From an uncultured Chloroflexia bacterium (GTDB lineage: Bacteria > Chloroflexota > Limnocylindria > Limnocylindrales > CSP1-4), in contig CAVRGP010000011.1 in NCBI GenBank assembly GCA_963720755.1, forward strand, positions 640,001 to 704,000: DNA of 64,000 bases, read 5' to 3'. Position 1 is the first letter of the stretch, and each line of letters begins with the position of its first letter. The notes under the pieces are model-generated. The model worked only from the letters and a program-made list of their open reading frames with translations, did not search any database and had not been told where the DNA came from. This document shows, one piece after another, positions 12,870-16,474 of this stretch. The position numbers and the translations under genes were made by a program.

Positions 12870-13907
12870 TCAGTACCCGGCGTCGTCGCTTCTGACGAGG
12901 GCGATCGCGTTCTCGAGTCGGAGCTTCGCGATGGTCAGGTACTTGGCGAGGTTCGCCCGGTCTGTCGCTCCGATGGCCCCACGGACCTCCGGGCTCGCCA
13001 GGACCCCGACCAACTCCTCGACCGCATCGGCCAGGCCCTGCTTGGCGACCACGAGCGAGTCGTCGCCGATGAGTCGTGGCGCGGCGTCGTCCGAGCGCCA
13101 GGTCGGCCCTTCCGACGACTCGGCTTCGCTCGGGGTCGTGTCCGCCGAGTCGATCTCGTCACTGATGGCGATCTCCATCGTGGGATCGGCGACGGCATCC
13201 TGCCGCGGTCGGCGTCCCTCGATCTTGTCTCGAAGCTTGATCAGGGTCAGCTCGCCTCGGGCGACCTGCTCCGCAAGGCGACGCCGCTTCCTCGGGTCGG
13301 TCACCTTCATCAGCTCGTACGCATGCGACAGACTGTCCTTGCGCAAAGACACGAGTTCGCGGACCTCGGGCGGCGCGTCCGCGAGCCGGAGCCGGTTCTC
13401 GAGATAGCCCTTGTCCTTGCCCAGCTTGTCGGCGAGCTTGCGGATGCTGTAGCCATGCTCGTGGACCATTCGGTCGTACATGGCCGCTTCATCGAGCGGC
13501 GTGAGGTCCTCTCGCTGGAGGTTTTCGATGATCGCGATCTCGAGGGCCGTGTCGTCGTCGATCTCCTCGATGAGGGCCGGGATCGTGGTCAAGCCGGCCT
13601 GCCGTGAGGCTCGCCACCGACGTTCGCCGGCGACGATCTGGTAGGTATTGGGACCGAGCGGTCGGACGAGGATCGGTTGGAGGACGCCGTGCTCCCGGAT
13701 CGATGCCGACAGTTCGTCGAGGGCATCCTGTTCGAAGAGCATCCGCGGTTGTTCCGGGTTCGGTTCGATATGGTCGATCGGAACGACGCGAACACCGACC
13801 GACCGGGTCGGGCTGTCGGGCGTCAGCAGGCTGACGATGGCGGGGGAGAGGGCCGTGTCCTCGGACAGGCGTCGGGCGGCTGCCGCGCGGAAATCAGTGC
13901 GAGCCAA
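12870..13907 (-). CDS. parB: ParB/Spo0J partition protein
   Basis: NPEQPR, GVLQPILVR, AGERRWRA (CTP-binding box) and ENLQREDL, followed by an HTH; overlaps the parA stop. Confidence 0.95.
   Translation of the reverse strand: MARTDFRAAAARRLSEDTALSPAIVSLLTPDSPTRSVGVRVVPIDHIEPNPEQPRMLFEQDALDELSASIREHGVLQPILVRPLGPNTYQIVAGERRWRASRQAGLTTIPALIEEIDDDTALEIAIIENLQREDLTPLDEAAMYDRMVHEHGYSIRKLADKLGKDKGYLENRLRLADAPPEVRELVSLRKDSLSHAYELMKVTDPRKRRRLAEQVARGELTLIKLRDKIEGRRPRQDAVADPTMEIAISDEIDSADTTPSEAESSEGPTWRSDDAAPRLIGDDSLVVAKQGLADAVEELVGVLASPEVRGAIGATDRANLAKYLTIAKLRLENAIALVRSDDAGY
13335..13350. repeat. 16-bp palindrome copy 1 (candidate parS) inside parB
   Basis: GTCCTTGCGCAAAGAC, one mismatch from a perfect palindrome; flanking T/A extends it to 18 bp. 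Confidence 0.7.
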
Positions 13908-14664
13908 GTTCGATCACCTCCCGGGCAAGCTGGCGATACGTCCTCGCCGCGTCCGTGTTGCTGGCATACGTCGTGATCGGCCGTCCGACCAGTGGCGCCT
14001 CGCCCAACTTGACCGTGTTCCGAACGATGCTCGTGAAGACGTGGTGATCGCCGACGGTCCGCAGTTCCTCGAGCATGTCCTTGGCCAGATTGGTCCGTCC
14101 GTCAAAGAACGTCGGCAACAAGCCGAGGATCCGGAGGTCGCGATTCAGTTTGAGGCGGATGGCGTTGATGACCTTGACCAGGTTGTTGAGGCCCTTCATC
14201 GCGTAGTACTGCGTCTGGACCGGGATGATGACCCCGTCGGATGCGACCAGCCCGTTCACCGTCAGCAGGCCGAGGTTCGGCGGGCAATCGATGAGGACGT
14301 AGTCGTACACCGCGATCTGCCCATCGAACGCTTCACGCAGGATGCCCTCGCGGCCGAGTGCCGTGAACAGTTCGCCTTCTGTGGAAGCCAGGTCGATGTG
14401 TGCCGGGGCGACGTCGATGCCTTCTGTCCCCGTGGCGATGATCACGTCGCTGAGTGACGACCGACCATCGGCCAGTACATCGGCCATCGACTGCTCGACC
14501 GTATTGAGGTTGATGCCGAGCCCGGCGGTCAGGTTTGCCTGCGGATCCATGTCGACGCACAGGATCCGGTACCCCTCTTCCGCAAGCGCGCCGGCCAGAT
14601 TGATCGCCGTCGTGGTCTTGCCGACCCCGCCCTTCTGATTGGCGATCGCGATCACGTTCGTCAC
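13894..14664 (-). CDS. parA: ParA/Soj ATPase
   Basis: [11 protein letters not shown] deviant Walker A, DMDPQAN and DCPPNLG. Confidence 0.95.
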
Positions 14665-14768
14665 CTGGGCTGCACCTCAAGTTGTCGTGGAGGCGGCACA
14701 TCGGCCGTCGGGTCCCGGAATGGATTCGTGCCATGGTACCCCCGCGGCGTGCACCCAGGGCACCCTGG

Positions 14769-14811
14769 TTATCCACACGCTTTGGAAGTTGTTCACCGAA
14801 TTTGTGGATAT
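14769..14811. promoter_or_regulatory. DnaA-box cluster upstream of parA
   Basis: TTATCCACA at 14769-14777 (perfect), TTGTTCACC at 14789-14797 (2 mismatches), inverted TGTGGATAT at 14803-14811 (1 mismatch). Confidence 0.65.
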
Positions 14812-14856
14812 CCCGAACGTCGCAAGTGGGGCGGTCGGGGCAGATATGATGGTCGC

Positions 14857-14872
14857 GTCCTTGCGCAAAGAC
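14857..14872. repeat. 16-bp palindrome copy 2 (candidate parS)
   Basis: GTCCTTGCGCAAAGAC, 6 nt downstream of a TATGAT -10 (14845-14850). Confidence 0.7.
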
Positions 14873-14895
14873 AGTCGATAAGGAGCGCCGAACGC

Positions 14896-16440
14896 GTGTC
14901 GACGAACGCTGAACGGTTCGCACGCCTGGATGCGATGCGCGCGTCGTCACGATCGGGTGGCGGTGTCGCGCGGGTCAAACGGCAACATGATGCAGGCAAG
15001 TTGACTGCTCGGGAGCGCCTGGAGCTGCTGCTCGATCCGGGCTCCTTCGTCGAACTCGGTGCGTTCGTGATGAACCGTGATCCAGGCAAGTCCGGATCGT
15101 TCCTTGGCGATGGCGTCGTGACGGGTCACGGCGAGATCGATGGCCGAACAGTCTTCGTCTTCAGCCAGGACTTCACGATCTTCGGAGGCTCCTTGTCGGA
15201 GGCCTACGCCGAGAAGATCTGCAAGGTGATGGATCTGGCGACGCGGGTCGGGGCGCCGATCATCGGCCTGAACGATTCGGGCGGCGCCCGGATCCAGGAA
15301 GGGGTCGTCTCGCTCGGCGGATATGCGGATATCTTCCTGCGCAACGTGCTGGCGTCCGGGGTCGTGCCACAGATCTCGGTCGTCCTCGGACCATGCGCCG
15401 GTGGCGCGGTCTATTCGCCGGCGATCACGGACTTCACGATCATGGCCGAGACAACGAGCTACATGTTCGTCACCGGACCAGGTGTGGTGAAGACCGTGAC
15501 CCACGAGGATGTCGATGCGGAGTTCCTCGGCGGCGCGGTGACTCACACCACGCGCAGCGGAGTCGCCCATTTCGCCGCACCCGATGAAGCCCATGCGCTC
15601 GACACGGTTCGCGACCTGCTCGCCTATCTGCCGCAGAACAACATCTCGTCGCCGCCGATCGTGGCGACCCAGGACCCGACCGATCGGGCCGATGTGTCGC
15701 TCGACTCCATCGTCCCGGACGATCCCCGGATGCCGTACGACATGCATGACGTCATCGAGCCGATCATCGATGACCGGGTCTTCCTGGAGGTGCAGCCTGA
15801 TTGGGCGCAGAACATCATCATCGGTTTCGCGCGCCTGGGTGGCCGAAGCGTCGGCGTCGTTGCGCAGCAACCGGCGGTCCTCGCTGGCGCCCTGGATATC
15901 GATGCGTCGGTCAAGGCCGCCAGGTTCGTCCGAACCTGTGATGCGTTCAATGTGCCGCTCGTCACGTTCGTCGATGTGCCGGGGTTCCTGCCGGGCGTGG
16001 ACCAGGAGCACGGGGGCATCATCCGACACGGGGCAAAACTGCTGTACGCGTACGCGGAAGCGACCGTACCCAAACTGACAGTCATCACACGCAAGGCGTA
16101 TGGGGGCGCCTATGACGTCATGAGCAGCAAGCACATCCGCGGGGACATGAATCTCGCCTGGCCGACGGCAGAGATCGCGGTGATGGGCGCGGAAGGGGCG
16201 GTCAATATCATCTACAAGGATGCGATCGCGAACGCCGCCGACCCGGAAGCGGAACGCGAACGACTCGTCTCGGAGTACCGCACCGAGTTCGCGAACCCAT
16301 TCATCGCGGCGGCCCGGGGGTACGTCGACGACGTGATCAAACCTTCTGAGACCCGACCTCGATTGATCCGCGCGCTCGCTCTGTTGGCGGACAAGCGCGA
16401 CAGCAACCCGCGCAAGAAGCATGGCAACATCCCGCTTTGA
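14896..16440 (+). CDS. pccB: Acyl-CoA (propionyl-CoA) carboxylase, carboxyltransferase subunit
   Basis: [39 protein letters not shown] and [16 protein letters not shown]. Confidence 0.92.
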
Positions 16441-16458
16441 CCTGGCAGCGGGCAAGCC

Positions 16459-16474
16459 GTCTTTGCGCAAAGAC
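16459..16474. repeat. 16-bp palindrome copy 3 (candidate parS), perfect
   Basis: GTCTTTGCGCAAAGAC (18 bp perfect with flanking C/G) in the 46-bp gap between carboxylase genes. Confidence 0.72.

Follow-up and report, generated by a model that had tools for sequence, protein, structure and literature searches.

The window analysed here, 64,000 nucleotides of an uncultured Chloroflexia bacterium of the class Limnocylindria (GenBank assembly GCA_963720755.1, contig CAVRGP010000011.1, positions 640,001 to 704,000), carries a pair of partition genes, parA2 and parB2, and three copies of a 16-bp palindrome. The palindrome reads GTCCTTGCGCAAAGAC at 13335-13350 and 14857-14872 and GTCTTTGCGCAAAGAC at 16459-16474, in sequence and coordinates exactly as in the original prediction, which proposed it as a non-canonical parS site of the adjacent genes. 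That prediction had seen no further copy by eye and no canonical parS in the 64 kb. A window scan allowing up to three mismatches likewise found nothing beyond the three copies (3 of 100 shuffles also reached three matches at this loose setting), and canonical parS is absent from the window, with two elsewhere in the genome, on contig C2. Across the whole genome (3,010,706 bases in 15 contigs), the window copies are the sole matches with at most two mismatches to the perfect palindrome and form a single 3.1-kb cluster around parAB2; four scattered matches appear once three mismatches are allowed. An order-4 Markov model predicts 0.00005, 0.004 and 0.15 matches per genome at zero, one and two mismatches, respectively. 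Because the motif was picked after being seen, its conservation in relatives is the real test, not this expectation. The conserved unit is 18 bp long, YGTCYTTGCGCAARGACR, according to a weight matrix built from 148 site matches at loci of f1 and f4, two of the families f1 to f5 distinguished in the class (some genomes contribute twice). The three copies score 34, 31 and 30 bits vs 12.6 bits for the next best place in the genome. The palindrome is most likely a parS of new specificity, real and conserved, and is referred to below as parS2.

ParB matches with E-values of 1e-25 or lower are found in all 151 class genomes, nearly all of which have two, and the best match is below 1e-70 in all save three. 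The class tallies rest on metagenome-assembled genomes (MAGs) and include genomes flagged as unpublished (G178, G160, G187, G140 and G431). In a draw from the phylum, 36 class genomes matched at E-values of 1e-77 or lower; the other 265 genomes gave only six matches, none better than 6e-51. All named records with full-length relatives are from Chloroflexota, one being titled Candidatus Limnocylindria. At up to two mismatches, the palindrome is kept in 36 of 36 genomes of the same genus (3-5 copies each, one with 9), where a reversed-pattern control matched in 2 of 36. It occurs in 137 of the 151 class genomes (f1 54/54, f4 60/61, f3 19/27, f5 1/1, f2 2/7). Outside the class it is at background, with 1-2 matches in 38 of 265 genomes vs 50 of 265 for the reversed control. 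These counts lend support to the suggestion that the site is lineage-specific and would be missed by standard parS searches. One MAG (G029; L052 and L025) contains two parAB2 loci, one of them frameshifted, and nine site matches, which may reflect a binning or assembly artefact.

Table 1. Features of the parAB2 region and its surroundings, in window coordinates
Feature	Coordinates	Strand	Remarks
Putative parS2, copy 1	13334..13351	.	18 bp (16-bp core 13335-13350); inside parB2, codons V186-S192, rare synonymous codons
Putative parS2, copy 2	14856..14873	.	Between the divergently oriented parA2 and pccB; 193 bp from parA2, on its upstream side, and 24 bp before likely pccB start
Putative parS2, copy 3	16458..16475	.	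Perfect 16-bp palindrome; 19 bp after pccB stop, before likely accC start at 16487
parB2	12870..13907	-	345 aa; ParB CTPase domain, helix-turn-helix (HTH; recognition helix GKDKGYLENRLRL), an acidic linker and a C-terminal domain forming a helical hairpin in the model
parA2	13894..14664	-	256 aa; Soj-like ATPase without N-terminal HTH; overlaps parB2
DnaA-box-like 9-mer	14769..14777	+	Perfect consensus match; upstream of parA2
Second DnaA-box-like 9-mer	14803..14811	-	One mismatch; faces the first box
pccB-like carboxyl transferase gene	14896..16440	+	Mere neighbour; palindrome does not track pccB in f2, f3 and f5
121-aa gene without family	11653..12018	+	Adjoins parB2 in f1, f2 and f4, streamlined genomes included; possible link to the system
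dcw cluster (mraW to ftsZ)	32441..48896	+	At most about 35 kb from the site cluster in mapped f1, f3 and f4 genomes

Of 77 f1 and f4 parB2 genes, 76 retain the internal copy, 74 of them with at most two mismatches. This copy is spelled with rare codons: TTG for 54 of 61 Leu (background 4%), AAA for 51 of 75 Lys (9%) and TCT for 33 of 78 Ser (4%). Random synonymous recoding (5000 draws) reached the observed match in about 1% of draws or fewer for 74 genes and in about 5% for two; one further gene was not parsed in this test, and the 76 genes share ancestry and are not independent events. The internal palindrome switches between two one-mismatch forms while the protein remains unchanged.

ParB2 scores above the cut-offs for PF02195, PF17762 and TIGR00180. 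A monomer structure model gives a confident helical hairpin at residues 282-339 of the C-terminal domain; fold-search matches are confined to the N-terminal and HTH parts of ParB and Noc, and no usable ESM Atlas match was found for this domain or for the 121-aa neighbour. In all 39 aligned ParB2 proteins, the recognition-helix residues K164-D165-K166-G167-Y168, E170-N171-R172 and R174 are invariant, as are the cytidine triphosphate (CTP) motifs GERRxR and ENLQRE. At the positions that set specificity for parS or the Noc-binding site (NBS) according to the available text of PMC7383237, ParB2 has K, R, D, S and Y204 vs R, T, A, G and R204 in Caulobacter ParB. The same text describes R173 and G201 as absolutely conserved in canonical ParBs. 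Both are kept in ParB1, the product of a second parA-parB pair of this genome (see below); ParB2 has K and S at these positions and D for S172. Because of these K, R, D and S residues (D for S172, Y for R204), ParB2 is not expected to bind canonical parS.

The strongest case for cognate binding is provided by three parAB loci from Chloroflexota outside the class, in which the GKDK helix of ParB2 occurs together with arrays from the same 18-bp palindrome family as parS2, located beside parB. These loci are related to each other and count as one to three independent cases. The top plasmid match to ParB2 is the ParB of a finished Ca. Chlorohelix plasmid (WP_341472162.1; 40% identity over 229 residues). 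This protein has the helix GKDKSYIENRL, and two perfect copies of TGTCTGTATATACAGACA lie 37 and 121 bp after its gene. They are the only matches to the relaxed class pattern on the 241-kb plasmid; the 375-kb sister plasmid has none, and its ParB has a different helix and a different palindrome. Two more loci, from another Chloroflexota family, encode the helix GKDKSYVESRL; TGTCTGTAYRTACAGACA occurs three times at one and five times at the other. Where the helix differs within this ParB lineage, so does the palindrome. The shared residues 172, 173 and 179 would correspond to the shared outer bases of the sites and the differing residues 201 and 204 to the differing inner bases, which fits the published geometry. 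The palindrome is thus very probably the site to which ParB2 is predicted to bind. The claim that it is a non-canonical parS of the adjacent ParB gains from its conservation in the class and this co-occurrence of helix and site in plasmid-type loci.

In trees, the ParB2 clade (support 96/94) joins plasmid-type ParBs at 100/99 (two Chlorohelix plasmid ParBs and four MAG loci), and a clade of ParB2 with ParB1 is rejected (approximately unbiased test, p-AU 0.002; 26 chosen rows). The plasmid ParAs carry an N-terminal HTH, which ParA2 does not have. Transfer from plasmid to chromosome is the simpler story and is considered fairly likely. Most matches from a metagenome scan for sister ParBs were of the ordinary kind.

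Other palindromes were observed among these relatives. Three perfect copies of TGTTTTCGCGAAAACA surround parAB of the Chlorohelix plasmid unnamed1 (L267:6757, 8788 and 9710) and are likely an unreported parS variant. A TTCACA...TGTGAA palindrome lies upstream of HTH-bearing plasmid-type parA genes (L266:6825; L378:7387; L379:8089; L380:2892-2930) and is probably a ParA autoregulatory operator. Single palindromes located right after parB genes with the helices GKSKGY and GKHRSY (L377:1242; L380:2911) are candidate parS variants.

In f1 and f4, sites are found inside parB2, in the gap separating parA2 from pccB and beyond the end of pccB. Gene order past parAB2 continues with the pccB-accC-accB-mcm run, followed by sucCD, sdh and the dcw cluster. 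Two of the three copies therefore flank pccB, and some f1 genomes have additional copies between the acc and mcm genes, as might be expected if the palindrome were the operator of a metabolic transcription factor (for example of the ScfR/PccR type) controlling this run. The site nevertheless stays by parA2 where pccB has been lost (L099, L187 and f2, where it lies at -108 to -111 bp). In f3 and f5, parAB2 has moved away from pccB; in none of four f3/f5 genomes is there a site less than 1.5 kb from the pccB orthologue, although these genomes carry it elsewhere. A single region containing selB, pepA and a UvrD-nuclease gene accounts for 16 of 20 f3/f5 site loci. Its 1-4 copies sit inside these coding sequences or between convergent gene ends. 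This layout is the behaviour of a positional site, not of an operator. The selection of the copy within parB2 and the occurrence of the same site family around plasmid-type parAB genes without pcc genes also speak against a metabolic operator, an explanation that is largely refuted and is considered extremely improbable. Copies scattered genome-wide upstream of metabolic genes, named in the original prediction as evidence against a parS, were not found at up to two mismatches; the three copies are clustered, and the f3/f5 sites are away from pccB. A de novo palindrome search around parAB2 at seven f3/f5 loci returned GC-rich coding noise only, the sites lying elsewhere.

The same layouts bear on the possibility that ParB2 is a KorB-like sliding-clamp regulator of its own operon, of pcc-acc-mcm or of dcw, with little or no DNA movement. 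Such a role would suit the f1/f4 copy in the divergent promoter region, the f2 copy upstream of parA2 after pccB loss and the persistence of parB2 where parA2 was not found, in 12 of 24 f2 genomes. It is at odds with the f3/f5 sites within selB, pepA and the UvrD-nuclease gene or between convergent ends, none being at the parAB2 promoter, and with the intact parA2 in the f1, f3, f4 and f5 loci examined. Regulation as the main role is considered quite improbable. A sigma-70 scan of the parA2/pccB region gave no promoters. ParB2 has a conserved N-terminal F-R-x-A...R peptide, a motif unlike that of ParB1, which is missing in the nine parA2-less f2 ParB2 proteins examined. In the streamlined f2 loci L043-L051, from which parA2 has been lost, the parB2 helix is intact, the N-terminus is rewritten and most have no detectable site.

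The genome encodes another parA-parB pair on contig C2, directly downstream of two canonical parS (one and two mismatches) and 33 kb from dnaA. ParB1 of this pair has a canonical helix and a canonical GLGRGL-type N-terminus, which ParB2 does not have; the two proteins are 43% identical over 184 residues. Because a complete canonical ParABS is located near dnaA in the same genome, ParAB2 supplements the origin system and does not replace it. A cluster of three 16-bp palindromes surrounding parAB could have suggested the origin centromere of the lineage in place of canonical parS. The genome map refutes this: the canonical sites are near dnaA, and in relatives 0.77-1.78 Mb of contig separate parAB2 from dnaA. 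The explanation retains practically no probability. The implication of the original prediction that the palindrome is the chromosome's centromere, standing in for canonical parS, accordingly did not hold. Nor does it cluster at oriC: parAB2 and dnaA share a replicon but are 35-42% of the chromosome apart. SMC and ScpB were found in the class; the idea of a class without SMC had rested on a false-negative profile search and was dropped once SMC was found. An SMC-like open reading frame (1267-aa frame) lies at G000 C11:887517-891317 in the source genome, and the Pfam SMC_hinge profile missed the hinge in 4 of 5 class genomes, indicating a divergent hinge. A third ParA-like ATPase (128 bits) is encoded on a 17.6-kb contig (G000 C4:408-920).

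Eight relatives have dnaA and parB2 on one contig (G179, G195, G142, G097, G069, G030, G016 and G066). Plain GC skew is too weak to place the terminus, and oligomer skew was used instead together with a 28-mer that we take to be dif-like. In all four near-complete genomes, 45-53% of the contig separates this 28-mer from dnaA; in the source genome it is near the end of contig C15 (G000 C15:548893-548920). On either arm, parAB2 is found at 0.77-0.81 of the distance from dnaA to the dif-like site (5 of 5 computable genomes). The remaining distance is 238-387 kb for seven genomes; two others have 353 and 465 kb, and a genome of 1.2 Mb has 152 kb. A location at the terminus itself was therefore rejected. 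The site clusters are 19-34 kb from ftsZ, upstream of it in f1/f4 and downstream in f3.

The DnaA-box-like 9-mers upstream of parA2 match the consensus better than the boxes beside dnaA itself. The pair is conserved at 60 of 61 f1 loci; all 15 f4 loci have just one box. Together with the plasmid type of ParB2, these boxes would be compatible with an integrated chromid or plasmid whose centromere and origin are retained at this locus, the origin still firing as a secondary one. Despite the conserved boxes, an active origin at parAB2 is argued against because the leading-strand oligomer bias keeps the same sign on either side of the locus (contig C11). The position of the dif-like site, about halfway around the contig from dnaA, is likewise unfavourable, the boxes are absent from 8 of 8 f2 and 8 of 8 f3/f5 loci, and no rep gene was found among the scanned neighbours. 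A secondary origin is considered very unlikely, less so than the metabolic operator.

The proximity to ftsZ suggests a further explanation, division-site control, in which the ParB2 complex would mark the late chromosome and ParA2, acting like PldP or MipZ, would place or time the FtsZ ring. In the available text of PMC7022226, C. glutamicum PldP provides a precedent for a ParB working with a second ParA-like protein in division. MinC was not found in 5 of 5 class genomes, a weak indication as the same search missed the SMC hinge in an SMC-bearing genome. ParA2, which has a deviant Walker A motif (KGGVGKT), scores as Soj/ParA (AAA_31 210 bits; MipZ 41 bits) and is under the MinD cut-offs. Division-site control is considered unlikely; it is ranked behind late segregation or positioning and ahead of regulation.

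The preferred interpretation is that the palindrome is parS2, at which ParB2 is predicted to load, and that it belongs to a second chromosomal ParABS, of plasmid type, marking a late-replicating part of the main chromosome. This is considered reasonably likely. The system persists throughout the class, even in streamlined genomes of 1 Mb. An active role of ParAB2-parS2 in late segregation or positioning is given slightly better than even chances. The fullest version is evenly balanced between being right and wrong: a main chromosome with two centromeres, on which the domesticated plasmid-type ParABS would actively segregate or position the terminus-side dcw region in a late step of its own, perhaps coupled to division and with DnaA setting its timing.

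Several observations weigh against this interpretation. With SMC and ScpB present, there is no obvious gap for a second system to fill. None of seven f3/f5 loci has a site less than about 10 kb from parAB2, and in two f3 genomes with both on one contig the site cluster and parAB2 are 45-56 kb apart, with dcw between them; this layout makes a simple arrangement, in which parAB is invariably accompanied by its sites, less convincing. At two mismatches, 8 of 27 f3 genomes have no match. The f2 sites are degenerate and on separate contigs, and the f2 tally, which in itself favours the interpretation (1-4 relaxed matches in 12 of 12 genomes with parA2 vs 3 of 12 without it), is partly circular, as the relaxed pattern was derived from parA2-bearing f2 genomes. 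In half of f2, parB2 is kept but parA2 was not found; ParA2-driven movement is therefore dispensable in these genomes. The inner bases of the plasmid-type sites are not those of parS2. The ParA tree is weaker, with ParA2 joining one of six plasmid-type ParAs at 89, and the trees are unrooted and do not give the direction of transfer. Finally, related genomes are not independent observations, and the constant position of parAB2 may be plain synteny.

The proposed model for the two-centromere chromosome is as follows. A ParA2-ParB2-parS2 system of the Chloroflexota plasmid-type lineage would have become established in the common ancestor of the class, as a domesticated system serving the late-replicating chromosome. 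Its sites would now mark a late-replicating region beside the dcw cluster, at about 0.8 of one arm. By analogy with the ParB family, for which the available parts of PMC7333895 and PMC12462528 describe site-specific loading, CTP clamp formation, sliding and ParA stimulation by an N-terminal peptide, a ParB2 dimer would read the 18-bp palindrome with its two HTH domains, close as a CTP clamp, slide and build a partition complex, and the ParB2 N-terminal peptide would stimulate nucleoid-bound ParA2. After fork passage, sister parS2 loci would be pulled apart or positioned independently of the ParA1-ParB1 complex on canonical parS, the distinct sites preventing crossing between the two systems.

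ParAB2 resembles known systems in part. Like canonical Soj-Spo0J-parS (Caulobacter ParB, PDB 6t1f), it consists of a parA-parB operon with CTPase motifs and HTH, a Soj-like ParA without HTH and a few palindromic sites, one within parB. Unlike it, ParAB2 is a second system far from oriC, beside the canonical one, with another site, other specificity residues, a helical-hairpin C-terminal domain in the ParB2 model and no GLGRGL-type N-terminus. Plasmid unnamed2 of Ca. Chlorohelix allophototropha (NZ_CP128402.1) shares the GKDK helix and has 18-bp TGTC...GACA palindromes next to parB; these are putative parS, no publication having been found for that role. It differs in being a plasmid, in the N-terminal HTH of its ParA and in the inner site bases and residues 201 and 204. 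The Burkholderia cenocepacia chromosome 2 site (available text of PMC7022226) has the central six bases in common with parS2, a likeness at the level of the site; among the proteins compared, plasmid-type systems of Chloroflexota are the closer relatives. The Burkholderiales variant centromeres described in the available portion of PMC5450999 are, like parS2, 16-bp palindromes of narrow specificity; they serve separate replicons or a strain-level integrated plasmid, whereas ParAB2 is on the main chromosome of a whole class. ParABS systems of secondary replicons share the plasmid-type ParB, but parAB2 is on the same replicon as dnaA. Noc, a ParB-family CTPase paralogue with its own palindrome, is the best PDB sequence match of ParB2. 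Unlike Noc, ParB2 scores 191 with TIGR04285 (cut-off 315), has K, R, D and S instead of QKKR and is encoded with its own parA, and its sites are in one cluster rather than spread over the chromosome.

No published description of the site or of a second chromosomal ParABS in Limnocylindria was found in a literature search made mostly without subscription papers. The surprise lies in the place more than in the sequence, as a second, plasmid-type ParABS is located late on the main chromosome of a whole class; the available text of PMC7333895 describes chromosomal ParABS as the segregator of the origin-proximal region. The natural helix-site pairs (GKDK with TGTC...GACA in four settings, GKAR with TGTTTTCGCGAAAACA) would extend the parS/NBS recognition code to new residues, and the new ParB-site pair, if orthogonal, would be useful for locus labelling. 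The arrangement suggests chromosome movement or positioning in two steps in these bacteria. If this is true, ParABS can take on a further stage of segregation or a positioning task in the cell cycle, and a plasmid-type system can turn into core chromosomal machinery.

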